From IMG/VR virus record IMGVR_UViG_3300045988_061017: 56,476 nt of DNA. One strand, given 5' to 3'. Shown piece after piece: positions 4,007 through 51,741 of the stretch (positions are counted from its first letter, which is position 1; the number at the start of each line of letters is the position of its first letter). Below the pieces are notes generated by a model. It saw nothing but the letters and a program-made list of their open reading frames with translations, was not told the DNA's origin and did not search any database. The stretch is from a virus. The translations under genes and the position numbers were made by a program.

Positions 4007-4035
4007 AGGGTCGCTTATGGCGGCTCTTTTCTTTT
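4007..4035 (+). terminator. Rho-independent terminator
   Basis: agggtcgc/gcggctct 8-bp stem (2 G-U) then tttcttttac. Confidence 0.65.
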
Positions 4036-4067: not shown

Positions 4068-4144
4068 GGAATAGTAGCTCAGTTGGTAGAGCACTGGTCA
4101 ATATACCGCACCAGGGGTCGATGGTTCGAATCCATTCAATTTCT
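4068..4144 (+). tRNA. tRNA-like gene with canonical D and T arms but an 11-nt anticodon loop (isotype not assignable; possible non-canonical or pseudo-tRNA)
   Basis: Acceptor GGAATAG/CAATTTC (6/7 pairs); D arm GCTC-AGTTGGTA-GAGC; T arm GATGG-TTCGAAT-CCATT; variable loop GGGTC. Anticodon stem CTGGT/ACCAG encloses CAATATACCGC (11 nt, not 7). No encoded CCA. Confidence 0.6.
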
Positions 4145-5124: not shown

Positions 5125-5128
5125 TCTA

Positions 5129-5690: not shown

Positions 5691-6428
5691 ATGTGTAAAA
5701 GAGAAATGACATTAGGAGAAGAAATTATCGGATTATCAACAAGAGGGATTGACACACCTACAGTAGAAAGAATGTACAGAAAGTATATCGAAATGGCTGC
5801 TGATAAAGAGTCAAAAGAAGCTATGAGAGCGTATTGCATTAATGATGAACTTGCGATTAAAGAATTTGTTAATGCAATATTCGGAGTTCCAGCGAAGTCC
5901 GATTTAAAAAATGCTGAGGTAGGAGATAAGACAACCATTAAGTTGAACGGATTTGGAGAATTCACAGCAACAGTACACAAGGTTACTGACGATAGAGTTA
6001 TGCTTATTTTCGATGATTATGTAACTAAGAGACCTATGAATGAGTCAGATACAAATAAGGGAGGATTTGAAGAGTCAGATTTGAATAAATGGTTACATAC
6101 AGAGTTCGTCAAGGCGTTACCTTATTCAATTAGAGGAAGACTCACTAATGTTACTATTCCTACAGTAGGTGAGATGTTTGGATGGGATGATGAGTGGGAT
6201 AGAAACCACTTTGAAGCGGATAATGACAAACAGCTTCCTCTTATGAAGCAGAGACGCAATCGAGTTGCTTATTATAACAATGAGTGTGAGTTCGGATGGC
6301 TTCGTAATGCTACCAAGAAAGAATTTTCTTCGGCTCGTTTCGCTTTTGTGAACTACGATGGCGGTACGGACTACGTCAGCGCTTCGAACTCTTTTGGGGT
6401 TCGTCCGGAAATCTGGTTGGTTAAGTAA
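5691..6428 (+). CDS. DGR target protein 1 (C-terminal variable, C-type-lectin/GVRP-type ligand-binding domain); no signal peptide or TM
   Basis: 245 aa; the last ~30 codons are VR1, differing from the TR only at TR adenines; ends '...ASNSFGVRPEIWLVK', like the second target. Confidence 0.85.
   Translation: MCKREMTLGEEIIGLSTRGIDTPTVERMYRKYIEMAADKESKEAMRAYCINDELAIKEFVNAIFGVPAKSDLKNAEVGDKTTIKLNGFGEFTATVHKVTDDRVMLIFDDYVTKRPMNESDTNKGGFEESDLNKWLHTEFVKALPYSIRGRLTNVTIPTVGEMFGWDDEWDRNHFEADNDKQLPLMKQRRNRVAYYNNECEFGWLRNATKKEFSSARFAFVNYDGGTDYVSASNSFGVRPEIWLVK
6325..6409 (+). other. DGR variable region VR1
   Basis: 85-bp alignment to TR 52729..52813 with 14 differences, all at TR adenines and none elsewhere. 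Confidence 0.9.
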
Positions 6429-6470
6429 AAATCTCCGCCCCTTGTGGGCGGGGTAATTTATAGGAAAGGA
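6417..6470 (+). repeat. 54-bp block identical to 51688..51741, containing GC hairpin CCGCCC-cttgt-GGGCGG (DGR target-recognition/cruciform-like element)
   Basis: ttggttaagtaaaaatctccgccccttgtgggcggggtaatttataggaaagga occurs exactly after both VRs. Confidence 0.85.
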
Positions 6471-11924: not shown

Positions 11925-14900
11925 GTGATGTTGGATTTTATGGTGGTTTCAACGCGTAGTACAAAGCGCGGAACAATAGAAATCTATCCAAAGTTCCTTA
12001 TTAAAAAAAGCACAGACCTTATGATTCGAGGTGGTGATTTTTACGCTATCTGGATAGAAGAACGTGGTTTATGGTCTACAGACGAACAGGATGCTTTACA
12101 ACTTATAGACCGCGAACTGGATAGATATGCTGAGGAGAATCGCCAACGCTTTAACTCAGATATTAAAGTCCTGCATATGTGGGACGCTGAGAGCGGAATG
12201 ATTGACTCTTGGCATAAATACTGTCAGAAACAATTAAGAGACAGTTTTCATACGCTTGACGATAAACTTATATTTTCCAATACGGAAACGACAAAAAAAG
12301 ATTATGCAAGCAAGCGACTTAATTATCCTCTTGAAGATGGAGATTTAACAGCATACGAAAAACTGATTAGCACTTTATATTCTCCGGAAGAACGAATGAA
12401 GATAGAGTGGGCTATTGGTTCCATAGTATGTGGTGAGTCGCAGAAATTACAGAAATTTCTTGTACTATACGGAGCAGCTGGTACAGGTAAATCAACAATT
12501 TTAAATATTATTCAGCAGTTATTTGAGGGTTACTACTCAGTCTTTGATGCGAAAGCATTGGGGTCTAGTAGTAACTCTTTTGCGTTAGAGGCGTTTAAAA
12601 GTAATCCATTGGTGGCTATTCAGCACGACGGAGACTTATCAAGGATTGAGGATAACACAAGGCTTAACAGTTTGGTATCCCATGAGCTGATGACTGTAAA
12701 TGAGAAATTTAAGTCAACATATGCAAACCGCTTTAAATGTTTCTTATTTATGGGAACTAATAAACCGGTACGCATTACAGATGCTAAATCTGGTCTTATA
12801 AGACGACTGATTGATGTGTCTCCGTCTGGAAATAAACTTAATCCAAAGGAATACAAAACAATTGTGAAACAGGTCAGTTTTGAACTTGGAGCGATTGCGT
12901 ATCATTGCCAGGAAATATATTTGGATAATCCTGGAAGATACGATGATTATATTCCAATTTCAATGCTTGGTGCATCTAATGATTTTTACAACTTTATAGT
13001 TGATTCCTATTATGTGTTTAAAAAAGAAGATGGTACAACTCTTAAAGCGGCTTGGGAAATGTACAAGAATTACTGCGATGAAGCGAAAGTTGGTTATCCG
13101 TTATCAAGAAGGGCATTCCAGGAAGAATTGAAGAACTATTTCAAGGATTTTCAGGAGAGATTTAATTTTGATGACGGTTCGAGAGTACGAAGCTATTACA
13201 TAGGATTCAGGACAGATAAGTTCGAAAGTGATACTCAAACAAAGAAAAAAGAGACACCAAAAACTTATCAGATAGAGTTCAAAGAACAGGAGTCAATATT
13301 TGATTCTGTATGTGCGGATTGTCCAGCACAATACGCTTCGCAAAATGAAACCCCACAGCAGAAGTGGGAAAAAGTAAAAACGAAATTATCTGCTCTGGAT
13401 ACATCACAAATTCATTATGTGAAAGTTCCAGAAAATCACATTGTCGTAGATTTTGATATTCCGGATGAGACTGGAAATAAATCTTTTGAAAAGAATTTGG
13501 AAGCTGCTAGTAAGTTGCCACCGACTTATGCAGAACTGAGTAAAAGTGGTCAAGGGATACATCTTCATTATTTATATTCTGGAGACCCTTCTCAGCTAAG
13601 CAGAATCTACGATGACCATATAGAGGTAAAAGTATTTACTGGTAAAAGTTCATTAAGAAGAAAACTTACTAAATGCAATAATTTGCCAATAGCTACTATA
13701 TCCTCTGGGTTACCAATGAAAGGAGAAGACAAAATGGTAAATTTTGATGCCATAAAAAGCGAGAAAGGACTTAGAACACTTATAAAGAGAAATCTTAATA
13801 AGGAAATCCACCCAGGAACTAAGCCAAGTATCGATTTCATATACAAAATATTGGAGGATGCTCATAGTAGTGAACTCAAATATGATGTAACAGATATGCG
13901 TAATGCTGTATTAGCATTTGCAGCAAACAGCTCTCATCAGGCAGAGTATTGTATAAAGCTCGTTAATAAGATGCAGTTCAAATCGGAAGAAAATTCAAAT
14001 GCTGTAAAAAATGACGATGCAAAGTTGGTATTCTATGATATCGAGGTATTTCCGAACCTGTTTTTGGTCAACTGGAAAATAGAGGGCGAAGGAAAGCCTG
14101 TTGTCAGAATGATTAACCCGACACCAAGCGAAATAGAGGAATTGATACAGCTTAGATTGGTCGGATTTAACTGTCGACGATATGATAACCATATTATGTA
14201 TGCCAGATTGATGGGATATACAAATGAACAGCTGTTTAACTTATCACAAAAGATTATTAATAACAGTCCAAACTGTTTCTTCGGTGAAGCCTACAATATT
14301 TCTTTTACGGATGTGTATGATTTTTGCTCAAAGAAGCAGTCCCTTAAAAAATGGGAAATCGAATTGAGTAACAAGGCTAATGATCCACATTCAAAGATGG
14401 ACGATGAAGTCAGAGCATTATGTAAAAAGATAAAGCATCACGAGCTTGGACTTCCTTGGGATCAGCCTGTTCCAGAAGAACTTTGGACAAAAGTAGCTGA
14501 ATATTGCGATGATGATGTTATCGCCACAGAGGCTACATACAAAGCAAATCTTGGTGACTTTGTTGCTAGAGAAATTTTAGCAGAATTGGCTAATGGTTCA
14601 GTAAATGATACGACTAATAGCTTAACTACAAAATTTATATTTGGAAAGAACCGTAATCCTCAGAGTGAATTTATGTATAGGGATTTGTCTGAGCCGGTTA
14701 CAGAATTACCAGATGATGTATTAGCATTCTTAAAAGAAGCAAAGCCGGAGATGATGGCTGAACCATTTCACGGACCGAAAGGAGATAGCTTGTTACCATA
14801 TTTCCCAGACTACAGATTCGAGAACGGAAAATCCCTTTACAGAGGGGAAGAAGTTGGAGAAGGCGGAGAAGTGTGGGCAGCTCCTGGTATGTACGGACGT

Positions 14901-16163
14901 TCGGAAACAGAAGATGTTGGTTCGATGCACCCTAACTCAGCAATATCTGAGTGCTTATTTGGACCGGATTTCACAAAGAGGTTTAAAGATATCTTGGACA
15001 TTCGTATCTGTATCAAGCATGGTGATTTCGATATGGTACGAGATATGTTTGAAGGGGCATTGGCTAAATATCTCGATGATACTGGTAAAGCAAAGGCACT
15101 GGCTCAGGCATTGAAGATTGCGATTAATTCTGTATATGGATTAACGGCGGCGGGATTTATGAATGCCTTCAGAGACTCAAGGAATAAGGATAATATCGTA
15201 GCAAAGCGAGGTGCATTGTTTATGATTGACCTTAGACATGAAGTTGAAGCACAGGGATACAAAGTAATTCACATTAAGACGGACTCTATTAAGATTGAAA
15301 ATCCGGATGATTATATTCTTGATTTCATTTGCAAATATGGCAAACGCCACGGATATGAGTTCGAGGTAGAGCATATATTTGACAGGATTTGTCTAGTCAA
15401 CAATGCCGTATATGTTGCAAAATTGGCTGACGACGATCCAGAAAAACCAGGAACATGGACCGCTACAGGAACTCAGTTTCAGATTCCTTATGTATTTAAG
15501 TGTCTCTTTAGTAAAGAGGATATTAAATTCGAGGATATGTGTGAAACGAAGTCTGTAAGCGGTTCTTTATATTTGGACTTAAATGAAGCCTTACCGGATG
15601 TATCTCAATATGAAAAAGAATTTAGCAAGGCTGAGAGTGACTTCAAGAAAGGATTGTTATCTGATACGACATTTGAAAGCACTTGCCAGAGACTAAATCC
15701 GCTTATTGCGGAGGGGCATAATTATCGCTTTATTGGAAAAGTTGGACAGTTCTGTCCTATAAAAGACGGCTGTGGTGGCGGATTACTTATGCGTGAAAAA
15801 GACGGTAAGTATTATGCTGCAACAGGTACAAAGGGTTATAGATGGCTTGAATCTGAGATGGTCAGAGAACTGGATAAAATCGATGACATCGATAGGTCTT
15901 ACTATGACAAACTTGTAAATGAAGCAATTGATACTATTTCTGAGTATGGCGATTTTGAATGGTTTGTATCAGATGACCCATATATAACAGAAAAGAAGCA
16001 GGATACACCAAAACTTATGCCTTGCGGAGATGCTAAATATACAACTTGCTTTGACTGTCCGCACTTCAATGATGACACATATCATATGGATTGTGGAAAA
16101 AATTATGATATTTCGGAAGTGATTTCAAGTCAGGTGATGAATCCACCTGTAGAAACTAAATAA
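11925..16163 (+). CDS. Replicase fusion: SF3 (P4/D5-like) helicase + AEP primase-polymerase + family-B DNA polymerase with 3'-5' exonuclease
   Basis: SF3 helicase: Walker A 'GAAGTGKST', Walker B 'VAIQHDGD', motif C 'FMGTN'. AEP: 'VVDFDI' and 'SKSGQGIHLHYLY'. PolB: ExoI 'FYDIEVF', ExoII 'NCRRYDNHI', ExoIII 'YCDDDV', motif A 'DVGSMHPNS', motif B 'KIAINSVYG', motif C 'IKTDS'. Confidence 0.85.
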   Translation: MMLDFMVVSTRSTKRGTIEIYPKFLIKKSTDLMIRGGDFYAIWIEERGLWSTDEQDALQLIDRELDRYAEENRQRFNSDIKVLHMWDAESGMIDSWHKYCQKQLRDSFHTLDDKLIFSNTETTKKDYASKRLNYPLEDGDLTAYEKLISTLYSPEERMKIEWAIGSIVCGESQKLQKFLVLYGAAGTGKSTILNIIQQLFEGYYSVFDAKALGSSSNSFALEAFKSNPLVAIQHDGDLSRIEDNTRLNSLVSHELMTVNEKFKSTYANRFKCFLFMGTNKPVRITDAKSGLIRRLIDVSPSGNKLNPKEYKTIVKQVSFELGAIAYHCQEIYLDNPGRYDDYIPISMLGASNDFYNFIVDSYYVFKKEDGTTLKAAWEMYKNYCDEAKVGYPLSRRAFQEELKNYFKDFQERFNFDDGSRVRSYYIGFRTDKFESDTQTKKKETPKTYQIEFKEQESIFDSVCADCPAQYASQNETPQQKWEKVKTKLSALDTSQIHYVKVPENHIVVDFDIPDETGNKSFEKNLEAASKLPPTYAELSKSGQGIHLHYLYSGDPSQLSRIYDDHIEVKVFTGKSSLRRKLTKCNNLPIATISSGLPMKGEDKMVNFDAIKSEKGLRTLIKRNLNKEIHPGTKPSIDFIYKILEDAHSSELKYDVTDMRNAVLAFAANSSHQAEYCIKLVNKMQFKSEENSNAVKNDDAKLVFYDIEVFPNLFLVNWKIEGEGKPVVRMINPTPSEIEELIQLRLVGFNCRRYDNHIMYARLMGYTNEQLFNLSQKIINNSPNCFFGEAYNISFTDVYDFCSKKQSLKKWEIELSNKANDPHSKMDDEVRALCKKIKHHELGLPWDQPVPEELWTKVAEYCDDDVIATEATYKANLGDFVAREILAELANGSVNDTTNSLTTKFIFGKNRNPQSEFMYRDLSEPVTELPDDVLAFLKEAKPEMMAEPFHGPKGDSLLPYFPDYRFENGKSLYRGEEVGEGGEVWAAPGMYGRSETEDVGSMHPNSAISECLFGPDFTKRFKDILDIRICIKHGDFDMVRDMFEGALAKYLDDTGKAKALAQALKIAINSVYGLTAAGFMNAFRDSRNKDNIVAKRGALFMIDLRHEVEAQGYKVIHIKTDSIKIENPDDYILDFICKYGKRHGYEFEVEHIFDRICLVNNAVYVAKLADDDPEKPGTWTATGTQFQIPYVFKCLFSKEDIKFEDMCETKSVSGSLYLDLNEALPDVSQYEKEFSKAESDFKKGLLSDTTFESTCQRLNPLIAEGHNYRFIGKVGQFCPIKDGCGGGLLMREKDGKYYAATGTKGYRWLESEMVRELDKIDDIDRSYYDKLVNEAIDTISEYGDFEWFVSDDPYITEKKQDTPKLMPCGDAKYTTCFDCPHFNDDTYHMDCGKNYDISEVISSQVMNPPVETK

Positions 16164-20055: not shown

Positions 20056-20956
20056 CCAATATTTAGCAAATCACAGGGCTAATGTTAAAAGAGGATTTGA
20101 CTGGCTATGTGAGAATTTACCAGATGTTACAAATGATGTTTCAGATGCAGCCTGGCAGATTGAGTTTGCTCACGATAAGTCAAAGGACGAAGAAGACGAG
20201 TATAATGCATACGACGCATATTTTTATGGAAATAACAGGTCTTATAAAGTTGTCCAGGATTATCAAAGAGCATGGCTGTCGCATATTCATAGAAACCCAC
20301 ATCACTGGCAGTATTGGATACTTATTCATGACGATATGGAAAATGGAGAACTAGAGACTATTCTTGAAATGCCATATGATTATATTGTGGAAATGATTTG
20401 TGATTGGTGGGCTTTTAGTTGGGCCAATGGCAGTCTGTATGAGATATTTAACTGGTATGCCGAACATTCTAAATTCATGAAACTTGCACCTAGAACTAGA
20501 GAAACTGTTGAAGATATTCTTGATAAGATAAAGAACAGACTTGATAGTTTAGAAATTGAACATAGCGGTGTAAAAGGAATGAAATGGGGTGTTAGAAACG
20601 GTCCTCCATATCCGATAAAAGATAACGGACGTGTTGTGTCACAAAAATCTACATTGAAAAACGCAGCTGGTAAAGATATAATTAGCGTAACTCACGTTGA
20701 ATTAACGGGAACACCTAATAGTATTACTCAAATTCAGAGAAAAAATGGTGGAATTGATCGCAACTATTATGACGGTAACGGACGACAGATAAAACAGATA
20801 AGCAATAATGATCATGGACAACCGCAACGCCATCCATATGGAAAAAATGGAGAACATGCACATGATTATGTTTACGATGAAACTGGAGAATTATGCGATC
20901 GTCCAGCTAGAGAATTAACACAGAAAGAGCGAAAGGAAAATGGTGACTTTTTATGA
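20039..20956 (+). CDS. two-part protein: His-rich N-domain + 'KGMKWG' motif + YD/His-rich C-terminal module
   Basis: ATG 20039 after gaggtg; 'HSGVKGMKWGVRNGPPYP' is paralogous to the N-terminus of 31721..32260; C-terminus 'YYDGNGRQIKQISNNDHGQPQRHPYGKNGEHAHDY'. Confidence 0.6.
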   Translation: MSFQYDQYLANHRANVKRGFDWLCENLPDVTNDVSDAAWQIEFAHDKSKDEEDEYNAYDAYFYGNNRSYKVVQDYQRAWLSHIHRNPHHWQYWILIHDDMENGELETILEMPYDYIVEMICDWWAFSWANGSLYEIFNWYAEHSKFMKLAPRTRETVEDILDKIKNRLDSLEIEHSGVKGMKWGVRNGPPYPIKDNGRVVSQKSTLKNAAGKDIISVTHVELTGTPNSITQIQRKNGGIDRNYYDGNGRQIKQISNNDHGQPQRHPYGKNGEHAHDYVYDETGELCDRPARELTQKERKENGDFL

Positions 20957-24657: not shown

Positions 24658-24681
24658 ATTGATGAAAATTGGCTGAATTCA

Positions 24682-24918
24682 TGGATATCCATTTAATCAT
24701 TTTCGGTCATTTTCTGCCCACTTTTGAAAAAATAAAAACGGGCAGGAACTGAAAAAAATGGTCAAAAGTGCGAAAAATATTTAGTGGATATCCAACTTTG
24801 GTCAAAAATTTGGGTTTTCTGCCCACTTTTTAAAACGTTTTTGTCCATAGACTGAATGCCTGCAAACCCAGTATTTATGCGGGTTCCGAGTTCTTGGATA
24901 TCCAACTTTGGTCAAAAA
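24682..24918. repeat. Iteron-rich non-coding region: 3x palindrome TGGATATCCA, 2x 24-mer, 2x 16-mer, several GGTCAAAA boxes
   Basis: TGGATATCCA at 24682, 24785 and 24895; tggatatccaactttggtcaaaaa at 24785..24808 and 24895..24918; ttttctgcccactttt at 24710 and 24815; AT-rich stretch 24940..25000 follows. Confidence 0.8.
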
Positions 24919-25027
24919 CCCACTTTTTTTTTAACTTTAATGTGAAGAAAAAGTTTAATAAATATATATAATTAACAAAAAATTTTGGGTTTTTGTCCAA
25001 GAAGGTAGTCCCAGCTTAAGAAGCGAC

Positions 25028-25056
25028 TTTAAATTTAGTTTCAGCTATGGTATAAT
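25028..25056 (+). promoter_or_regulatory. Sigma-A-type promoter with extended -10
   Basis: TTTAAA -N17- (TGg)TATAAT at 25051..25056. Confidence 0.6.
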
Positions 25057-25939: not shown

Positions 25940-25953
25940 ATATATTTTTGAGA

Positions 25954-25988
25954 CAGAGATGCTTAATTGTGTCTCTGTTTTTTTATAC
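25954..25988 (+). terminator. Rho-independent terminator
   Basis: cagagatgc/gtgtctctg stem then ttttttta. Confidence 0.75.
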
Positions 25989-25996
25989 TATTTTTT

Positions 25997-26027
25997 GCGC
26001 GCGAAAAATACATTCTCTTTTATGAGG
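25997..26027 (+). promoter_or_regulatory. Conserved promoter-like motif, copy h (1-nt longer spacer)
   Basis: gcGCGCGAaaaaTACAttctcttTTATGAGg right after a terminator. Confidence 0.45.
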
Positions 26028-26098
26028 AGAGAGGTAAAATATGCATTTTTTAACAGCATTCACTTTCTCTTTTAATATTTGTGAAAGGAGCTTACAAA

Positions 26099-26389
26099 AT
26101 GTTAGAAAACAAATTCCAGGCTAATTTAATTAAAGAGCTTAAGAGACTTTTTCCTGGATGCATCGTTATGAAGAATGACGCAAGTTATATTCAAGGTATT
26201 CCAGACCTGCTAATTCTTTATAATGATAAGTGGGCTTCTTTGGAATGTAAGAAAAGCGCGTCGGCTAGTAAACAGCCTAATCAAGAATATTATGTGAATC
26301 AAATGAACAGGATGTCTTTTTCCCGTTTTATTTGTCCGGAGAACAAGGAGGAAGTACTATATGAACTTCAACAATCATTCCAATCTTGA
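26099..26389 (+). CDS. VRR-NUC / PD-(D/E)XK nuclease
   Basis: ATG 26099 after gaaaggag; 'GIPDLLILYNDKWASLECKK...QPNQEYYVNQM' matches the VRR-NUC D...ExK...Q pattern. Confidence 0.65.
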   Translation: MLENKFQANLIKELKRLFPGCIVMKNDASYIQGIPDLLILYNDKWASLECKKSASASKQPNQEYYVNQMNRMSFSRFICPENKEEVLYELQQSFQS

Positions 26390-26918
26390 GGGGCAGCACG
26401 CTTTTCTAGGAGCTAGTAAATATCATTGGATTAATTACAGCGAAGATAAAGTTGCCGATGCCTATTCAAAATTTCTTGCTACTCAGAAAGGTACTGTGTT
26501 GCACGCATTTGCTGCACAGTGTATTTCTTTGGGACAGAAATTACCAAAATCACAAAAGACTTTGAATATGTATGTTAATGATGCCATTGGTTATAAGATG
26601 ACACCAGAGCAAACATTATTCTATTCTGAAAACTGTTTTGGAACAGCAGACTCAATTTCATACAGGTCTGGATTACTCAGAATTCATGATTTGAAGACAG
26701 GAGTAATTCCGGCACACATGGAGCAGCTTATGATTTATGCCGCTCTTTTTTGTTTGGAATATAAAGTAAAACCTGCTGATATTGATATGGAATTAAGAAT
26801 TTATCAGAACAACGAAGTCCTGTATCATAATCCAACAGCAGAAGATATTGTTCCAATTATGGATAAAATCATTACCTTTGACAAGGTTATAAGAAAAATA
26901 AAAGAACAGGAGGGTTAA
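26361..26918 (+). CDS. PD-(D/E)XK exonuclease-like protein (RecB/Cas4-like, DUF2800-type; tentative)
   Basis: 185 aa, RBS aaggagga; 'GTADSI...LRIHDLKTG...QLMIYA' fits D...(D/E)xK...Q..Y. Confidence 0.5.
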   Translation: MNFNNHSNLEGQHAFLGASKYHWINYSEDKVADAYSKFLATQKGTVLHAFAAQCISLGQKLPKSQKTLNMYVNDAIGYKMTPEQTLFYSENCFGTADSISYRSGLLRIHDLKTGVIPAHMEQLMIYAALFCLEYKVKPADIDMELRIYQNNEVLYHNPTAEDIVPIMDKIITFDKVIRKIKEQEG

Positions 26919-26921
26919 TCT

Positions 26922-29711
26922 ATGAATCGAGTAGCTAAAGTATTATCTCAGATTTCAGATGATATGCTTATGCATTACGGTGTCGCGAGAAGATCTGGTC
27001 GATATCCATGGGGTTCTGGAGATAACCCTTATCAGCACAGTGGAGATTTTCTGAGTCGTGTGCAGTCTTTAAAAAAGTCTGGTATGAGTGAAACAGATAT
27101 TGCTAAGACTATGGGGCTTACAACAACTCAGCTCAGAACACAAATGAGTCTTGCTAAAGATGAAAGAAGAGCAGTGCAGGTTGCAACAGCAAAAGACCTT
27201 CGAGAAAAAGGTTACAGTTTGAATGAAATCGCTGACAAAATGGGTTTTGCAAATGACTCATCTGTAAGGTCTTTGTTGAATGAAAATTCAGAAGCAAGAA
27301 TGAATCAGGCAAAAGCCACTGCTGATGTTCTTAGAAAGCTTATTGATGAAAAAGGTATGATTGACGTTGGTACTGGAGTCGAAAGAGAACTTGGAGTTTC
27401 GAAAGAGAAACTTAATCAAGCTCTTTATATTTTGGAAATGGAAGGTTATCCGATTTATGGAGGCGGCGTTCCACAGGTTACTAATCCTGGAAAACAGACA
27501 AACATAAAAGTAATCTGTCCGCCTGGAACAGAGCATAAGGATATTTACAATTATGAGGATGTACACTCTGTAAAGGACTACATATCTTATGATGGAGGCG
27601 AATCTTTTAGAAAAGGTTTTGAATATCCTTCTAGTATGGACTCCAATCGACTTGCTATCAGATACAAAGAAGATGGTGGCATTAACAAAGATGGCGTTAT
27701 AGAACTTCGTAGAGGAGTTCAGGATTTATCATTAGGAGATTCTCATTATTCACAGGTTCGAATAATGGTAGACGGAAAGAAATATCTAAAAGGAATGGCT
27801 GTCTATTCTGATGATATGCCAGATGGCGTTGATGTTATTTTCAATACCAATAAATCAAAGTCAGTTCCTAAAATGGAAGTACTTAAGGATATTAAAAATG
27901 ACCCTGATAATCCTTTTGGTTCTTTAATAAAGGAACATGGCGGTCAAAGTTATTATGATGACCCCAAAGGAAAGTATATAGACCCTGTAACTGGGAAAAA
28001 ACAGAGCTTGTCTTTAATCAATAAGAGAGCCGAAGAGGGAGATTGGGGAGAATGGAGTAAAACACTTCCATCTCAGTTCTTATCAAAACAGAGTTTATCT
28101 CTTATTAAAAAACAGTTAGGTCTTGCGACAGCAGATAAGCAATCTGAGTTTGATGAGATTTGTTCATTAACTAATCCTACAGTAAAGAAAACTTTATTGA
28201 AATCTTTCGCTGATGATTGTGATTCAGCGGCTGTACATTTACAGGCAGCGGCATTGCCAAGACAGAAATATCAGGTAATACTTCCTTTGACAACAATTAA
28301 AGATAACGAGGTGTATGCACCTAACTATAAAGATGGTGAAACAGTTGCATTAATTCGTTACCCTCATGGAGGAACTTTTGAGATACCAATTTTAAAAGTA
28401 AACAATAAGTTAGTTGAGGGAAAGAGAGTCCTTGGCAATACACCTGCTGATGCCATTGGTATTAATAAAAAGAATGCAGATAGATTATCCGGAGCAGACT
28501 TTGATGGCGATACCGTAATGGTAATACCTTGTAATTCCTCAAAGAGTAAGGTAAAGATTACTTCTACACATTCTTTAAAAGGATTAGAAGACTTTGATAC
28601 TAAGGACGCATATGGTCCAGATTCTAGCAAGCCTGTAAAAGTAGATTCTAAAGGAAAAGAGTATTACACCAGAAATGGTAGAACATACCAGAGGATGACA
28701 AATACTCAGACAGAAATGGGTAAGATTTCTAACCTTATTACAGATATGACTTTGAAAGGTGCTACTGAACCAGAATTAGCAAAAGCTGTTCGTCATAGTA
28801 TGGTCGTTATTGATGCTCAAAAACATAAGCTTGATTATAAGCAGAGTGAAATTGATAATGACATTGCAACTTTGAAGAAGAAGTACCAAGGTACAACAGA
28901 TTCAAATGGTCACTATCATGAAGGTGCGTCTACTCTTATTTCAAGAGCAAAATCTGAAACTTCTGTATTAAAGAGAAAAGGAAGTCCGACCATCAATGAG
29001 GATGGTTCTCTCAGCTACAAAGAAGTTAAAGAAACATATACTGACAAAGATGGAAAAATAAAAATTCGTACTCAGAAGAGTACAAAGATGGCTGAAGTTA
29101 AGGATGCCAGAGAATTATCATCTGGTACTCCACAGGAAGAAGCATATGCAAAATATGCAAATTCTATGAAATCTTTAGCAAATCAGGCAAGAAGGGAAAT
29201 GGTTAATACTGGAAAGATTGCCTATTCTGCTTCTGCAAAAGCAACTTATCAGTCTGAAGTAGACTCCCTTATGGGAAAATTAAATGTTGCTTTGATGAAT
29301 GCCCCCCGTGAAAGACAAGCCCAGACTATTGCGAATGCCGAGGTTCAATCTAAGAAAAGAGATAACCCAGATATGACAAAGGCTGAAATTAAGAAGGCAA
29401 GTCAGCAGGCTCTTTCGAAAGCCCGTAATTCTGTAGGAGCTAAGAGAACTTCTATAGATATAACTGATAAGGAATGGGAGGCTATACAGGCTGGTGCTAT
29501 CAGTGAGAACAAGCTAACACAGATACTAAACAATACTAATATTGATGTTGTCAGACAAAAGGCTACTCCTCGTGCCACAACATCGCTTAGTACAGCTAAG
29601 CAGAATAGAATATCAGCTCTTTCTGCATCTGGTTACAGTACATCTGAAATAGCTGAAGCTTTAGGAGTATCTACTTCAACTGTATCTAAGTATCTGAATG
29701 GAAAGGAGTGA
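26922..29711 (+). CDS. YonO-like single-subunit two-barrel (beta/beta'-related) RNA polymerase with terminal HTH modules
   Basis: 'VALIRYPHGGTFEIPILKV..LVEGKRV...NADRLSGADFDGDTVMVIP' parallels beta' 'NRAPTLH...EGKAI...NADFDGDQMAVH'. 'KGMAVYSDDMPDGVDVIFNTNK' parallels beta 'NKGV...EDMP...G..VDIVLNP'. HTH-like 'SGMSETDIAKTMGLTTTQL', 'KGYSLNEIADKMGF' and C-terminal 'SGYSTSEIAEALGVSTSTVSKYL'. Confidence 0.75.
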   Translation: MNRVAKVLSQISDDMLMHYGVARRSGRYPWGSGDNPYQHSGDFLSRVQSLKKSGMSETDIAKTMGLTTTQLRTQMSLAKDERRAVQVATAKDLREKGYSLNEIADKMGFANDSSVRSLLNENSEARMNQAKATADVLRKLIDEKGMIDVGTGVERELGVSKEKLNQALYILEMEGYPIYGGGVPQVTNPGKQTNIKVICPPGTEHKDIYNYEDVHSVKDYISYDGGESFRKGFEYPSSMDSNRLAIRYKEDGGINKDGVIELRRGVQDLSLGDSHYSQVRIMVDGKKYLKGMAVYSDDMPDGVDVIFNTNKSKSVPKMEVLKDIKNDPDNPFGSLIKEHGGQSYYDDPKGKYIDPVTGKKQSLSLINKRAEEGDWGEWSKTLPSQFLSKQSLSLIKKQLGLATADKQSEFDEICSLTNPTVKKTLLKSFADDCDSAAVHLQAAALPRQKYQVILPLTTIKDNEVYAPNYKDGETVALIRYPHGGTFEIPILKVNNKLVEGKRVLGNTPADAIGINKKNADRLSGADFDGDTVMVIPCNSSKSKVKITSTHSLKGLEDFDTKDAYGPDSSKPVKVDSKGKEYYTRNGRTYQRMTNTQTEMGKISNLITDMTLKGATEPELAKAVRHSMVVIDAQKHKLDYKQSEIDNDIATLKKKYQGTTDSNGHYHEGASTLISRAKSETSVLKRKGSPTINEDGSLSYKEVKETYTDKDGKIKIRTQKSTKMAEVKDARELSSGTPQEEAYAKYANSMKSLANQARREMVNTGKIAYSASAKATYQSEVDSLMGKLNVALMNAPRERQAQTIANAEVQSKKRDNPDMTKAEIKKASQQALSKARNSVGAKRTSIDITDKEWEAIQAGAISENKLTQILNNTNIDVVRQKATPRATTSLSTAKQNRISALSASGYSTSEIAEALGVSTSTVSKYLNGKE

Positions 29712-29720
29712 ACATAGAGA

Positions 29721-29984
29721 ATGGATGTAACTAAGTGTGCATTGACTACAATTGACAACCCTTATGATCCATTCGACCAGTTCACCGAATGGATGCTATA
29801 TGACGAGGAGAAAGGCTATCACTCGACATCGTATCTTGGTCGCATCGCAAGGACATCGGATGAGCTATCGGATGAAGAGAATGACAAAGAGATTGAAAGA
29901 GCGATAGATGAAATCATCAAATATGATTTTAGAAACATATACAAGAAAGTGAAGAAAACACTAAAAATTACACAGACTGCTTAG
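29721..29984 (+). CDS. hypothetical protein
   Basis: 87-aa ATG ORF, RBS aaaggag. Confidence 0.6.
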   Translation: MDVTKCALTTIDNPYDPFDQFTEWMLYDEEKGYHSTSYLGRIARTSDELSDEENDKEIERAIDEIIKYDFRNIYKKVKKTLKITQTA

Positions 29985-30083
29985 TGGGTATAGGGGGGTG
30001 TCTGAAAAACATACCCCCATCCATATCGCGGCGGTCTTTATCTTTTCCCCAGAGGGAGATTTTTGAAAAATGTTCTTACATAT

Positions 30084-30207
30084 CAGCAGGGTTTTAAAGA
30101 GTTTATAGGATTATTACTTAGCGGTGGCTGGCTCATCTTTAAAGGTTGTCTCCTTTCATATACAAGAGTGGTGTAATAGTCTCTGTAAGCTCTTTAAAAC
30201 CCTGCTG
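30084..30207. repeat. Long inverted repeat / 124-nt hairpin in the RNAP-terminase intergenic region
   Basis: cagcagggttttaaagag (30084..30101) is the exact reverse complement of ctctttaaaaccctgctg (30190..30207); further inner pairing gattattac/gtaatagtc. Confidence 0.8.
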
Positions 30208-30255
30208 AAACTTTATATAAAGTGTGCAGAAATTACTTAAAAGGAGGCGGTAACT

Positions 30256-31353: not shown

Positions 31354-31728
31354 ATGGCAGCAGAGAGAATGAACGATAGTATTTTGGTATCAATTAAAAA
31401 AATGTTAGGCTTGCCAGATGAGTATGATGCATTTGATTTGGATATCATTACACACATTAATTCAGCGTTTACAATTTTGGCTCAGATTGGAGTAGGTCCG
31501 GCTAATGGATTTATGATCGAAGATAAAACCGCAGTATGGACTGATTTTATACAGGATATGGGAATTTATCAACTTGTAAAATCCTATATGGTATTAAAAG
31601 TTCGATTACTATTCGATCCGCCAATGAGCTCTGCTGTATTAGAATGCTATAAAACTCAAGCAAACGAATATGAGTGGAGATTAAAAACAATGGCTGAAAA
31701 CCAGGAGGTGAATAATCAAAATGAATAA
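31354..31728 (+). CDS. hypothetical structural/packaging-module protein (possible gp6-like connector family)
   Basis: ATG 31354 after aaaaggag; 'SIKKMLGLPDEYDAFDLDIITHINSAF...LKVRLLFDPP'; family name from memory only. Confidence 0.4.
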   Translation: MAAERMNDSILVSIKKMLGLPDEYDAFDLDIITHINSAFTILAQIGVGPANGFMIEDKTAVWTDFIQDMGIYQLVKSYMVLKVRLLFDPPMSSAVLECYKTQANEYEWRLKTMAENQEVNNQNE

Positions 31729-32260
31729 TGAATTAGAACACCATGGAATTAAAGGAATGAAATGGGGAGTGCGTCGTTATCAGAACAAAGATGGTTCTTT
31801 AACTTCTGCTGGAAGGAAAAAGCAATCTGATGGTAGCGGAGAAAAGAAAACTGTATCACCGAATACAAAGAAAAAGATTGCAGTAGCGGCAGTAAGCACA
31901 GCAACAATTGCGGCAGCAGCATATTATGTTCATAAGAATCCTGAAAAAATTGGGCAGGCAATGTCAAAGTTTAGAGGAGTGAAGATGAAAGATCTTAGTC
32001 AGAAAGCAGCTGATAAAGGCAAGGAATATGTTAAGAATGCTGTAAAAGGTGCTAAGGAGGGCGCAGAAGAAGCAATCAAAGAAGCACCTAAGAAAGCAGC
32101 AAAAGCAGTTGTTACTGGTGTTATCATGAACCAAACCAAAAAGGCTCTTGATTCGGCAGTAGGAAAGGAAGAAAGTGCAAAAATATTCCAGGCAAATGAT
32201 AATAAAAAAATCGGAAAATTCTGGAAAGTGTCACCCGATGATAAAGATGACGATGACTAA
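31721..32260 (+). CDS. 'KGMKWG'-motif protein with TM segment and Lys/Ala-rich tail
   Basis: 'HHGIKGMKWGVRRYQNKDGSLT' is paralogous to 20039..20956 residues 'HSGVKGMKWGVRNG'; TM 'IAVAAVSTATIAAAAYYV'. Confidence 0.6.
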   Translation: MNNELEHHGIKGMKWGVRRYQNKDGSLTSAGRKKQSDGSGEKKTVSPNTKKKIAVAAVSTATIAAAAYYVHKNPEKIGQAMSKFRGVKMKDLSQKAADKGKEYVKNAVKGAKEGAEEAIKEAPKKAAKAVVTGVIMNQTKKALDSAVGKEESAKIFQANDNKKIGKFWKVSPDDKDDDD

Positions 32261-50873: not shown

Positions 50874-51695
50874 ATGCCTAAAGTAACGGATTATTCCGCA
50901 GCAACCAGATTTGATAGTGGAGACGTAATTATTAAAGATGGTACTGGCGGAACAAAGAAAATGACAGCAGCAAATGCAGCAGTAGAATTTGCTGGACTTG
51001 TATCGGCGATTAATCATCGCAATGTATATAGAGGAAAGAACCTTGGCTCATCAGTTACAGCAGCCCAAAAGGCAGCTATTCAAAATGGAACATTTGACGA
51101 CCTGTTTATCGGAGATTACTGGGTAATTAGCGGTGTGACTTGGGTTATTGCAGATATGGATTATTTCCTTAGATGCGGTGATACAGATTTCACAAAGCAT
51201 CATCTTGTTATTGTTCCGGCGTCATCACTTTACAATGGTCAGATGAATGCAACTAATACGACAGAGGGTGGATATGTAGGTTCTGTTATGTATAAAACAG
51301 GATTGGATAATGCAAAAGCAAAATTTAAGGCTGCTTTTGGAGATATGCTTCTTACTCATAGAACTTATCTTGTAAATGCAGTCGCCAACGGAAAACCATC
51401 TGGAGGAGCATGGTTCGATGAGACAGTTGCGCTTATGCAAGAGGTTATGGTATATGGCACACATTATTTCGAGCCTGCAAATGATGGGACAACAATCCCT
51501 ACAAAATACAGCGTTTGCAATTCACAGCTTGCACTTATGCGCCTTAATCCAAGAATGATCAAGATAAAAGAAACTTATTGGCTACAGAACGTCGTTTCTT
51601 CGGCTGGTTTCGCTAGTGTGTCCGGCTATGGCGGTTCGTCCTGCAACGGCGCTTCGGGCTCTTTTGGGGTTCGTCCGTATGGAATCATTGGTTAA
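50874..51695 (+). CDS. DGR target protein 2 (tail-module receptor-binding candidate with C-terminal VR)
   Basis: 273 aa; C-terminus 'VVSSAGFASVSGYGGSSCNGASGSFGVRPYGIIG' is encoded by VR2. Confidence 0.85.
   Translation: MPKVTDYSAATRFDSGDVIIKDGTGGTKKMTAANAAVEFAGLVSAINHRNVYRGKNLGSSVTAAQKAAIQNGTFDDLFIGDYWVISGVTWVIADMDYFLRCGDTDFTKHHLVIVPASSLYNGQMNATNTTEGGYVGSVMYKTGLDNAKAKFKAAFGDMLLTHRTYLVNAVANGKPSGGAWFDETVALMQEVMVYGTHYFEPANDGTTIPTKYSVCNSQLALMRLNPRMIKIKETYWLQNVVSSAGFASVSGYGGSSCNGASGSFGVRPYGIIG
51590..51677 (+). other. DGR variable region VR2
   Basis: 88-bp alignment to TR 52724..52811 with 20 differences, all at TR adenines. Confidence 0.9.
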
Positions 51696-51741
51696 GTAAA
51701 AATCTCCGCCCCTTGTGGGCGGGGTAATTTATAGGAAAGGA
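51688..51741 (+). repeat. 54-bp block identical to 6417..6470 with GC hairpin (51706..51722)
   Basis: Exact repeat of the post-VR1 sequence. Confidence 0.85.

Follow-up and report, generated by a model that had tools for sequence, protein, structure and literature searches.

A prophage gene beside cos predicted to encode a single-chain two-barrel RNA polymerase with fused helix-turn-helix modules

The window, that is, the whole stretch of viral DNA that was analyzed (56,476 nucleotides; IMG/VR record IMGVR_UViG_3300045988_061017), originates from a Lachnospiraceae prophage and contains an integrase and a diversity-generating retroelement (DGR). An ORF of 929 aa with an ATG start lies on its + strand at 26922..29711, exactly where the first-pass annotation had placed it. 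Its match to phrog_4291 and its Foldseek matches mark it as the gene of a two-barrel RNA-polymerase-like single-chain protein of the phage 1706 ORF75 / PHROG 4291 family. All features of the surrounding transcription unit are also on the + strand. The preceding unit ends in an intrinsic-terminator-like hairpin with a 13-bp stem and a T-run (25950..25989), and this is followed by a 38-nt promoter-like motif (25994..26031), which a position weight matrix (PWM) assigns to the same class as nine copies in the early region. The first gene of the operon encodes a VRR-NUC-type endonuclease (26081..26389), which matches the endonuclease family phrog_93 and has an ortholog in Tribby annotated as a VRR-Nuc protein. 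A Cas4-like / PD-(D/E)XK exonuclease (26361..26918; phrog_3953, 2e-84) is encoded directly upstream of the polymerase gene. This synteny of exonuclease and polymerase is found in FP_oengus and Tribby; other genes intervene in P162 and 1706. About 2 kb upstream of the polymerase gene there is a cluster of iterons with an AT-rich stretch. The last gene before cos is an ORF of 87 aa (29721..29984; phrog_4303), which comes next after the polymerase gene in each of the four annotated phage genomes examined (FP_oengus, P162, Tribby and 1706) and in metagenomic loci.

The cos region (29985..30036) contains a G-run/C-run hairpin, with a cleavage site at about 30026/30027 and an overhang CGCGGCGGTC (30027-30036). 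The linear records of Tribby, P162 and 1706 have their right ends at this conserved block; the cos ends of P162 were determined experimentally. Twenty-four of 75 IMG/VR loci end 200-520 nt past the polymerase gene, mostly at or inside the hairpin block, and one of them carries an adapter directly on its end. In every linear genome examined the polymerase gene is the penultimate gene before cos. Downstream of cos follow an HNH endonuclease, a virion structural protein (according to PHROGs) and TerL at 32283; the ORFs scanned from cos to TerL included no recognizable TerS. The first-pass annotation had put the polymerase gene shortly before the packaging and structural genes, which is correct with respect to position, but the cos site, where the genome physically ends, lies in between. 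It had also offered the region 29985..30255 as a source of candidate promoters. This region proved to hold cos (29985-30036) and a long covarying hairpin of the late-operon leader (30083..30208, + strand; loop motif TCTCCTTTC at 30149-30157), and no promoter-like conserved sequence was found between the two. The hairpin occurs in 40 of 45 relatives, with compensatory changes in 25 of its 26 pairs; the non-Watson-Crick stem positions are G.T in 125 cases versus A.C in 15. It has no Rfam family. Any link of this hairpin to the polymerase would be speculative.

The match to phrog_4291 (E=0) covers residues 9-928 of the protein and positions 5-908 of the 909 in the profile, and orf75 of phage 1706 is 40% identical over the full length. 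A tblastn search with the window protein returned 251 phage records, 249 of them with a coverage of at least 80%. The family comprises 1,016 clusters (50% identity, E <= 1e-30), and its prophages are present in many human-gut Lachnospiraceae; the isolate Lachnospira hominis NSJ-43 has a 99%-identical copy of the gene. Most deposited records, including most of those from actinophages, are labeled 'HTH DNA-binding protein'. Many GenBank and PHROG records are named RNA-dependent RNA polymerase (RdRP), and in some JGI records homologs are called 'structural protein'. The polymerase reading is not new. A publication from 2010 placed the phage 1706 family among the YonO-like proteins and a second one from 2021 described this family with an RdRP-like core, a DxDGD motif and helix-turn-helix (HTH) domains at both ends; the prediction for this family had thus already been published from sequence. 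No biochemical or genetic study of any member was found in the literature searched.

The first-pass annotation had read the protein as one chain in which a beta-like barrel precedes a beta'-like barrel. The motifs on which it relied are present in the translation: KGMAVYSDDMPDGVDVIFNTNK (aa 290-311), IRYPHGG (478-484), EGKRV (500-504), SGADFDGDTVMVIP (523-536) and, at the C-terminus, SGYSTSEIAEALGVSTSTVSKYL (903-925). They are not chance matches, as the key residues are invariant in an alignment of 62 sequences with 39-81% identity. The invariant positions include D257/G258, R280, K290, G291, P300, G302, D304, N308, N310 and K311 in the first barrel, and R479, P481, H482, G484 and S523-D530 in the second. 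The alignment to the beta subunit is presumably in the correct register, with K290-G291 opposite the lysine of GNKG in E. coli beta. Among 150 diverse cluster representatives, 148 of which are full-length, D[FY]DGD is found in 148, and both barrels are retained in all 148 full-length relatives. Ruprich-Robert & Thuriaux listed eight residues as universal for two-barrel polymerases; all eight have invariant counterparts here.

An AlphaFold2 model of the full-length protein (pLDDT 80, pTM 0.74) was compared with the PDB using Foldseek, a check that had been proposed together with the original claim. The best match was QDE-1 (E 2.4e-8, probability 1.0, about 950 columns), albeit with low global TM-scores of about 0.3. 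It was followed by maize and Arabidopsis RDR2 (3.6e-5 to 1.6e-3) and then by beta'/Rpb1 chains. The top matches in BFVD were phage proteins named RdRP, together with local matches to RlpA-type double-psi beta-barrels (DPBBs).

Barrel 1, a predicted beta-like DPBB (aa 236-325; 27627..27896, + strand) with invariant D257, R280 and K290, had a pLDDT of 87-94 within the full model and of 92 when modelled alone. Submitted alone to Foldseek, it returned DPBB domains on top (the N-domains of p97, NSF and Pex1, FwdD, the barrels of FDH and NuoG, and P23-45 gp96); none of these matches was significant (best E 0.9) and the list is to be taken as qualitative support. A comparison with the YonO-family profile in hhalign gave a spurious hit only and no genuine match for this barrel, so that its identity would be visible by fold only. 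D257 may be its acidic residue. Barrel 2, the beta'-like DPBB (aa 440-545; 28239..28556, + strand), contains R479-x-P481-H482 and the metal loop. It aligned to the YonO-family profile with a Prob of 76% (E 2.2e-5), with RxPH and DxDGD in register. The invariant catalytic DFDGD (aa 526-530; 28497..28511, + strand) is aligned to the DNDGD of YonO. The barrel is followed by a helical pair (aa 590-660, MGxxSNLITDM...RHSMVVID; 28689..28901, + strand; helices 595-611 and 616-635 in the model) with many invariant residues, in which MGKISN is aligned to the IGxxSN of YonO; this pair is a candidate for a bridge-helix-like region. Because the Foldseek matches of the model, the register with the YonO profile and the invariant two-barrel residues agree, the predicted order of a beta-like barrel, a beta'-like barrel with a DFDGD metal loop and HTHs at both ends is supported.

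Neither the protein nor the family profile matched an RNAP or RdRP family in HMMER searches of Pfam and PDB sequences; the matches listed were HTHs only. Pfam RdRP (PF05183) was also absent among the best 25 of 51 families in hmmscan (cut-off E 1; each of the 25 with E <= 0.012); two YonO-family proteins do match it. A published HHpred comparison of an ortholog alignment with Pfam RdRP, on the other hand, gave a probability of 95.7%. This match, the fact that the closest solved structures, QDE-1 and RDR2, are RdRPs, and the covarying RNA hairpin nearby would fit a genuine RNA-dependent RNA polymerase, which makes dsRNA or antisense RNA from transcripts of the phage or the host. We consider this very unlikely. 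The name RdRP stems from homology only, and QDE-1 is reported to take DNA templates too (PMC9508822). YonO shares the RdRP-like core but is DNA-dependent (PMC5467207). Furthermore, five modules of a DNA-binding type are fused to the core of the window protein and no RNA-silencing partner is encoded nearby.

The protein starts with a conserved peptide (aa 10-36, L-HYG-x-R-x-SGRYPWGSG; 26949..27029, + strand), which is predicted to be disordered; residues 1-41 of the model have a pLDDT below 50. H18, G20, S25, G26, R27 and P29 are invariant in the 62 sequences, and the peptide is retained in 130 of the 148 full-length relatives. It has a weak match to DUF7211 (E 0.0066), which with 16 bits stays below the cut-off of 27; the DUF7211 motif is common to other proteins of the same phage.

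Of the three HTHs that had been claimed, the C-terminal one passes the Pfam cut-offs; the two N-terminal segments rest on the model, in which they appear as three-helix units, on conservation, and on profile matches below the Pfam thresholds (E 0.002-0.005). HTH-like module 1 (aa 43-80; 27048..27161, + strand) has helices at 43-52, 57-63 and 68-95 and a sub-threshold match to Sigma70_r4_2 (aa 54-79, E 0.0048). HTH-like module 2 (aa 84-126; 27171..27299, + strand) has helices at 100-107 and 112-119; it gave sub-threshold matches to HTH_38 and HTH_7 and weak ones to the HTHs of SinR, IS21 transposase and lambda cI. Whether the terminal HTHs are retained in homologs had been raised as a check: module 1 was found in 137, module 2 in 146 and the C-terminal HTH in 146 of the 148 relatives. 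Two further modules are retained in all 148. One (aa 146-200; 27357..27521, + strand) has the order strand-helix-helix-strand-strand (E146-148, H153-157, H161-173, E178-184, E192-198) and a sub-threshold match to the PafC HTH; its secondary structure suggests a winged helix. The other is a three-helix unit (aa 846-884; 29457..29573, + strand; helices 849-856, 862-870 and 874-881) on the N-terminal side of the C-terminal HTH, in which E851, W852, A854, A859 and L865 are invariant.

The C-terminal HTH (aa 888-927; 29583..29702, + strand) had been described as sigma-region-4-like. Sigma70_r4_2 indeed scores above its cut-off (31.7 versus 25.7 bits), but this description is over-specific, as the resolvase-type HTH_7 (39.2 bits), HTH_38 (38.5) and HTH_23 (36.0) pass their cut-offs as well and score higher. 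No sigma region 2 or 3 was found in the protein among the best 25 of the 51 hmmscan families. The domain is a generic three-helix HTH and not a member of the sigma-70 family. Small-terminase families of PHROG also match the HTHs (phrog_7067, 4.9e-10; phrog_1482). Taken together with the label of an HTH protein on most deposited annotations, the adjoining cos site and the lack of a recognized TerS, these matches could mean that the protein is a DNA-binding regulator or packaging accessory factor with a vestigial polymerase core. This idea seems hardly credible, as catalytic residues that are invariant across phyla, with DFDGD in nearly all representatives, are unexpected for a dead core; moreover, the similarity to terminases is confined to a generic HTH of 27 residues.

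The 38-nt motif has the form TTCGCAAAATTTACA-N6-ATTATGAGA. It is asymmetric and occurs in 10 intergenic copies, all on the + strand; nine of these score above every shuffle and one is weaker. The copy at 25994..26031 has a PWM score of 40.0 compared to a shuffle maximum of 20.3, and it is kept at the same place before the operon in the loci L014 and L017 and in FP_oengus, relatives with only ~50% protein identity. The motif is restricted to the early genes and the polymerase operon, with no copy before the late genes. A purine-rich start region follows it, and a tRNA follows the copy at 4034 at a distance of 8 nt. A sigma-70 promoter was considered for the motif and rejected; the spacing (TTCGCA, 14 nt, TATTAT) is unfit and a sigma-70 consensus scan made no calls there. 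A k-mer comparison of the intergenic gaps, made in search of a second motif class before the middle or late genes, yielded T-runs, ribosome-binding sites, the known motif and nothing else. The phage genome has a perfect extended -10 and many intrinsic-terminator-like hairpins, so that the host RNA polymerase may do most of the transcription.

These properties of the motif raise the question of whether the polymerase is delivered with the virion, or made immediately early, and reads the motif, so as to transcribe the early units together with the tRNA and the operon that encodes it, in the manner of N4, crAss-like or P23-45-type enzymes. No sigma or transcription factor was recognized among ten early ORFs. 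The polymerase gene adjoins the late genes, it is located beside an endolysin in 1706 and P162, with a structural protein nearby in 1706, and other two-barrel phage RNAPs are virion enzymes. The JGI name 'structural protein' and the disordered N-terminal peptide, with its resemblance to a motif in other phage proteins, point in the same direction, but both the name and the DUF7211 match are weak. We regard this scheme as unlikely. Classical intrinsic terminators, signals of the host RNAP, close the early units; the motif could be detected in neither the Lactococcus nor the Arthrobacter loci; and since the motif precedes the polymerase's own operon, self-dependence would require delivered protein or read-through.

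The position of the gene also invites a role in replication or recombination, in which its products would not be mRNAs but primers or activating transcripts, made at cos or at the phage origin. Co-transcription with the VRR-NUC nuclease and the Cas4-like exonuclease, the iteron cluster upstream and the constant place beside cos all fit such a role, and the HTH modules could bind an origin equally well. However, the phage replicase matches DNA-polymerase and DNA-primase families of PHROG. GP55 of phage 1706, of which we assume the replicase ORF of the window to be a homolog, contains helicase, AEP primase and PolB (PMC12205980). A dedicated primer-making RNAP would therefore not be needed, which weakens this hypothesis. 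In addition, the nuclease synteny is broken in P162 and 1706 by the endolysin and other genes, and the characterized relatives YonO, gp66 and gp64 are transcriptases. We judge a replicative role to be quite unlikely.

The explanation that we consider probable is that of a single-chain two-barrel RNAP of the 1706 / PHROG 4291 family, which serves the prophage as a DNA-dependent transcriptase, is targeted by its own fused modules and feeds middle or late expression. As judged from sequence, fold and conservation, the basic R280 and K290 of the N-terminal barrel would contact NTP and template, with D257 as acidic residue, and the C-terminal barrel would contribute R479-x-P481 and the metal-binding aspartates D526, D528 and D530. 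Contrary to many database names, the template would be DNA rather than RNA. The three small HTHs, the winged helix and the three-helix unit may tether the enzyme to specific sites of the phage DNA; with such tethering a separate sigma-like factor would be unneeded, and none was recognized among ten early ORFs. The enzyme would be expressed from its own transcription unit (terminator, 38-nt motif, VRR-NUC, Cas4-like exonuclease, polymerase, small ORF), which is the final unit before the right end of the packaged genome, and joining of cos would put the late packaging and structural operon directly downstream. The most economical scheme would be a T7- or YonO-like cascade, in which the enzyme appears together with the early gene products and then transcribes middle or late genes; the distribution of the 38-nt motif fits a late role only indirectly.

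The first-pass annotation had further suggested that promoter recognition is built into the enzyme, which is conceivable. In its strongest form, the enzyme would be a self-sufficient, promoter-specific RNAP, in which the modules replace sigma and read the 38-nt motif and/or a cos-proximal leader site with the hairpin; we hold this to be possible but doubtful. If it were true, this would be the first of the two-barrel RNAPs to have promoter recognition built in and would answer, for a sister family, a question that was left open for YonO (PMC5467207). Two-barrel RNAPs transcribe in all cells and the minimal single-chain versions are models of their ancestor; if fused modules give this protein promoter recognition, it would represent a compact relative of the cellular enzyme that works independently of sigma.

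The closest known relatives are other phage proteins. ORF75 of Lactococcus phage 1706 has the same full-length architecture, with its 40% identity extending over at least 98% of the protein, and AUV56548.1 of the Faecalibacterium phage FP_oengus ('putative RNA polymerase') is ~50% identical over at least 98%; for this FP_oengus ortholog a core like that of RdRPs, with DxDGD and flanked by HTHs on both sides, has been predicted in print. In both phages, as in the window, a small ORF is downstream of the polymerase and the position is beside cos. FP_oengus has nuclease genes immediately upstream like the window, but 1706 does not; 1706 and P162 have extra genes, including the endolysin, between nucleases and polymerase, which are missing in the window. 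The window copy differs from 1706 and FP_oengus in belonging to a temperate Lachnospiraceae prophage with integrase and DGR.

QDE-1 from Neurospora and plant RDR2, the best structural matches of the whole model, have the two-barrel core and the catalytic loop in common with the window protein. They share only 9-13% identity with it, at a TM of ~0.3, and are eukaryotic silencing enzymes without HTH modules. The crAss-like phi14:2 gp66 and Thermus P23-45 gp64/gp96, minimal single-chain two-barrel phage RNAPs with solved structures, belong to the same superfamily; they were absent from the best 50 PDB matches of the full model. Of these, gp66 and gp96 are virion enzymes, and no mention of fused HTH modules was found in the text consulted.

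The comparison with YonO, to which the protein had originally been likened, holds in part. YonO is also a single chain with the beta-like motif before the beta'-like one, and R...KG, RxPH, DxDGD and (I/M)GxxSN occur in the same order and register. Membership in the YonO family proper was rejected, as there is no BLAST or HMMER similarity and the whole-protein profile-profile comparison gave a Prob of only 42%; against the single YonO sequence hhalign gave 1%. A tblastn search with YonO found 40 records, and the host genera in its summary do not overlap with those of the window-protein records. Furthermore, six proteins of the YonO family showed no Pfam HTH, in contrast to the window protein, and five of the six annotated YonO-family loci, SPbeta included, have an HU-/IHF-like gene shortly downstream, where the window has the phrog_4303 ORF. 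The window protein belongs to a separate phage-1706 family of YonO-like proteins. The placement of the two genes is nevertheless comparable: yonO lies just upstream of the terminase/portal module of a temperate Firmicute phage, and YonO transcribes the late operon of SPbeta, starting at a site immediately past yonO itself (PMC5467207).

The polymerase gene occupies 26922..29711 on the + strand and encodes 929 aa, exactly as described in the first-pass annotation, which had called it a YonO-like two-barrel RNA polymerase fused to helix-turn-helix (HTH) modules. The peptide strings quoted there are all present in the translation and are strongly conserved in an alignment of 62 sequences, which covers three homolog clades with 39-81% identity to the window protein. 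In PHROGs, phrog_4291 matches the protein over its full length (E=0, residues 9-928) and is annotated 'RNA-dependent RNA polymerase'. A tblastn search found homologs in 251 deposited phage genomes, 249 at a coverage of at least 80% and all with <60% identity. The carriers are phages of Arthrobacter, Gordonia, Streptomyces, Curtobacterium, Microbacterium and Rhodococcus, and also of Lactococcus (P162, CHPC971) and Faecalibacterium (FP_oengus). Most of the deposited records name the homolog 'helix-turn-helix DNA-binding protein'; a few name it 'RNA-dependent RNA polymerase' or 'putative RNA polymerase'. Among 1.84 billion cluster representatives, searched exhaustively, 2,655 homolog clusters reached E <= 1e-3, and E <= 1e-30 was reached by 1,016.

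The product of orf75 from phage 1706 is 40% identical to the window protein across its full length. Ruprich-Robert & Thuriaux (2010, PMC2919709) placed this phage-1706 protein in one of five YonO-like families, and a 2021 description, which gave the family an RdRP-like core, a DxDGD motif and an HTH at either end, put the protein forward as a signature gene of its phage supercluster. The two-barrel polymerase reading is correct; it is already in the literature and not new, and the literature searched contained no experimental work on the family. New here are a structural test made independently, counterparts in the window protein for all eight universal residues, an architecture that is fixed across ~150 diverse representatives, and the mapping of cos, a promoter-like motif and a leader hairpin.

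HMMER-level searches detected no polymerase family in the protein, the HTHs alone being found. The AlphaFold2 model from the diverse alignment has a mean pLDDT of 80 and a pTM of 0.74; residues 241-320 reach a pLDDT of 87-94. When the full model was compared with the PDB using Foldseek, the top match was QDE-1 (7y7t_A; E 2.4e-8, probability 1.0, ~950 aligned columns). Maize and Arabidopsis RDR2 ranked second (3.6e-5 to 1.6e-3), followed by a long tail of multisubunit RNAP beta'/Rpb1 subunits (E 0.01-2). The global TM-scores of ~0.3 are low, which we attribute to extra domains and a different domain arrangement. In the viral library, phage proteins that bear the name RdRP match best, and there are local matches to small RlpA-type double-psi barrels. 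That the protein is a true RdRP, as such names would have it, is very improbable; we favour a DNA-dependent transcriptase, which would find its own sites without a sigma factor.

The beta-like barrel (barrel 1, aa 236-325) was modelled separately (aa 232-335, pLDDT 92) because it is the weakest link of the two-barrel reading. Foldseek gave no significant structural match to barrel 1 alone (best E 0.9). The top of this non-significant list consists almost entirely of domains that we take to be double-psi barrels, namely the N-domains of p97/VCP, NSF/Sec18 and Pex1/6, FwdD, and the C-terminal barrels of formate dehydrogenase and NuoG; the P23-45 gp96 RNAP is listed as well. The model hence supports a double-psi fold for barrel 1 qualitatively, without statistical support. 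The proposed register between KGMAVYSDDMPDGVDVIFNTNK and GNKGV..EDMP..VDIVLNP of the beta subunit is correct when set against the E. coli beta sequence.

Invariant positions in the 62-sequence alignment are, in barrel 1, D257/G258, R280, K290/G291, P300, G302, D304, N308 and N310/K311 and, in the beta'-like barrel (barrel 2, aa 440-545), R479, P481/H482, G484 and the entire S523-G-A-D-F-D-G-D530 stretch. D[FY]DGD occurs in 148/150 diverse cluster representatives. Eight residues are common to all two-barrel polymerases: three Asp of the metal loop, the R and P of R-x-P, and two basic residues plus one Asp of the beta/Rpb2-like barrel (PMC2919709). Seven of them have counterparts in D526/D528/D530, R479/P481 and R280/K290, all invariant. 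For the eighth, the Asp of the beta/Rpb2-like barrel, we infer that D257 is the counterpart; it is also invariant. No other acidic residue is invariant in the N-terminal half of barrel 1, and D257, like its YonO equivalent, is followed by G; the model places it in a strand region of high confidence. A regulator with a vestigial polymerase core is extremely improbable, since the catalytic residues are invariant. Alignment and model together show a predicted two-barrel polymerase core with its catalytic constellation intact, permanently fused to several modules of DNA-binding type.

The C-terminal HTH (HTH3, aa 888-927) scores above the curated cut-offs of HTH_7, HTH_38, HTH_23 and Sigma70_r4_2. 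Its description as sigma-region-4-like is too specific, since Sigma70_r4_2 is only one of many similar matches, as for a generic three-helix HTH. A conserved three-helix unit (846-884) lies ahead of it. The N-terminal region is predicted by the model to contain three-helix units at 43-80 (HTH1) and 84-126 (HTH2), then a winged-helix-like unit at 146-200; profile matches to these N-terminal modules were sub-threshold only. Retention was scored with sub-profile HMMs on 150 diverse cluster representatives and counted in those 148 that have 850 aa or more. Both barrels were retained in 148/148, and the homologs also keep the terminal HTHs (HTH3 and HTH2 in 146/148 each, HTH1 in 137/148); the N-terminal peptide was retained in 130/148. 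This peptide, LMHYGVARRSGRYPWGSG (26949-27029), is invariant and predicted to be disordered and weakly resembles DUF7211 (16 bits, below the cut-off). The DUF7211 motif HxG-I/V-KGMKWGVRR opens ORF 31721 (31721-31790) and is also found inside ORF 19988 (20552-20592), and the DUF7211-like peptide may serve these proteins in common for targeting or interaction.

The window is a circular assembly, with bases 1-99 repeated at 56378-56476 (a 99-nt terminal duplication) and all long ORFs on the + strand. Lachnospira hominis NSJ-43 has, on a 286-kb contig, a copy of the polymerase gene with 99% identity, relatives occur in genomes of Hungatella hathewayi, [Ruminococcus] torques, Blautia and Enterocloster, and a Tn916-type tyrosine integrase is encoded at 55071-56312. 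The window is therefore a temperate Lachnospiraceae phage. It also carries a diversity-generating retroelement with an RT (52964-54133), one template repeat (52720-52811) and two variable repeats (51586-51677 and 6316-6407), situated at the 3' ends of the ORFs at 50874-51695 and 5691-6428. Their mismatches fall at template adenines in 21/24 and 15/22 cases, and the same 54-nt block, which includes a GC hairpin, lies 3' of both (6417-6470, 51688-51741).

Genes for a VRR-NUC endonuclease and a Cas4-like exonuclease lie ahead of the polymerase gene. Behind it comes a small conserved ORF (phrog_4303), which is kept in 4/4 annotated phages inspected. The nucleases lie immediately upstream of the polymerase gene in FP_oengus and Tribby, whereas other genes, an endolysin gene among them, intervene in P162 and 1706. 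Directly 3' of the small ORF is a conserved block, a G-run/C-run hairpin followed by ATCGCGGCGGTCTTT, which is shared even with FP_oengus and conserved from Actinobacteria to Firmicutes phages. Its position matches the right-hand physical end in each of the linear Tribby, P162 and 1706 records; the cos ends of P162 were determined experimentally. In addition, 24/75 IMG/VR loci end 200-520 nt past the polymerase gene, most of them at or inside the hairpin block and typically just past '...CCCCC-N5-8-(C/A)AT'; one such end is joined directly to an Illumina adapter. These two kinds of ends place the cos site at 29985-30036, with cleavage at ~30026|30027 and the overhang CGCGGCGGTC. A conserved AAAWTTCCCC-G-GGG element (30040-30059) lies 3' of cos. 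In the packaged genome the polymerase gene is second to last, and the late operon starts across cos.

About 50 nt past cos, 40/45 distinct relatives have an inverted repeat of ~30 bp, with 34 different arm sequences. In the window this leader hairpin of the late operon spans 30083-30208 (arms 30083-30108 and 30183-30208). RNAalifold predicted 26 pairs from 27 sequences, with compensatory double changes in 25/26. Non-Watson-Crick stem positions are G.T in 125 cases versus A.C in 15; this excess points to selection on the + strand, probably as RNA or else as + strand single-stranded DNA. The loop has a nearly invariant anti-Shine-Dalgarno-like sequence, TTCTCCTTTC; in the window the loop motif is TCTCCTTTC at 30149-30157. 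FP_oengus has the hairpin too, as does 1706 at its left end, and no Rfam family corresponds to it. The late transcript of YonO also starts with an unannotated non-coding RNA (PMC5467207), and it is speculation that hairpin and polymerase are linked.

A 38-nt promoter-like motif, TTCGCAAAATTTACA-N6-ATTATGAGA, occurs in 10 copies, all intergenic and on the + strand. Nine (1438, 1989, 2513, 2927, 3719, 4034, 5125, 7278 and 25994) score above every shuffle, and the copy at 587 is weaker; those at 5125 and 7278 are identical. The motif is not sigma-70-like, and a consensus scan made no call at the copies; a perfect extended -10, TGGTATAAT, is present at 25048, 3' of a candidate origin. The early region is enriched in intrinsic-terminator-like sites (11 versus an expectation of 3.0), several of which lie directly ahead of motif copies. 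The 4034 copy lies 8 nt ahead of a tRNA gene (4068-4144; Rfam RF00005, 50.5 bits) that ARAGORN missed. The 25994 copy, just 3' of a terminator-like hairpin (25950-25981) and 50 nt ahead of the VRR-NUC gene, is kept at that place before the nuclease/polymerase operon in FP_oengus and two numbered loci (L014, L017). No sigma or transcription factor was recognisable among ten early ORFs. That the polymerase is delivered in the virion and reads this motif as an early enzyme is unlikely; by analogy with YonO, it would be made from an early-class unit and act on later genes.

The candidate replication origin (24675-24993) comprises three iteron-like repeats, TGGATATCCA[ACTTTGGTCAAAAA], at a spacing of 103-110 nt, a second repeat, TTTTCTGCCCACTTTT, in two copies, and an AT-rich stretch. 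The iteron cluster (24682-24918) speaks for an origin-associated role, in which the polymerase would make primer or activator transcripts at the origin or cos, and we consider this distinctly improbable beside a transcriptase of later genes. A 1412-aa replicase (phrog_4210; 11925-16163) is assumed to be in one family with phage 1706 GP55, a recently characterised four-in-one helicase / AEP primase / PolB replicase (PMC12205980).

For comparison with YonO, we took yonO from the SPbeta record and added five diverse homologs to obtain a six-member profile. The family profile matched the single YonO sequence with a Prob of 1% and the YonO profile, over the whole protein, with a Prob of 42% (E 2.7e-4). 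Barrel 2 alone reached a Prob of 76% (E 2.2e-5), and barrel 1 alone gave no match to the YonO profile. In the whole-protein comparison R..KG, RxPH, DxDGD and (M/I)GxxSN are in register. Unlike in the window protein, Pfam detects no HTH in the six YonO-family proteins examined, and a pair of these match Pfam RdRP above threshold. In 5/6 annotated YonO-family loci (L004, L005, L006, L007, L009 and L010), SPbeta included, the polymerase gene is followed at a short distance by an HU- or IHF-like gene, whose product may be a conserved partner of the YonO-family polymerase. The weak profile matches, together with the lack of an HTH and the HU/IHF-like neighbour in the YonO family, identify the window protein, as judged from sequence comparison, as a sister family in the 'YonO-like / RdRP-like' branch and not as a YonO ortholog.
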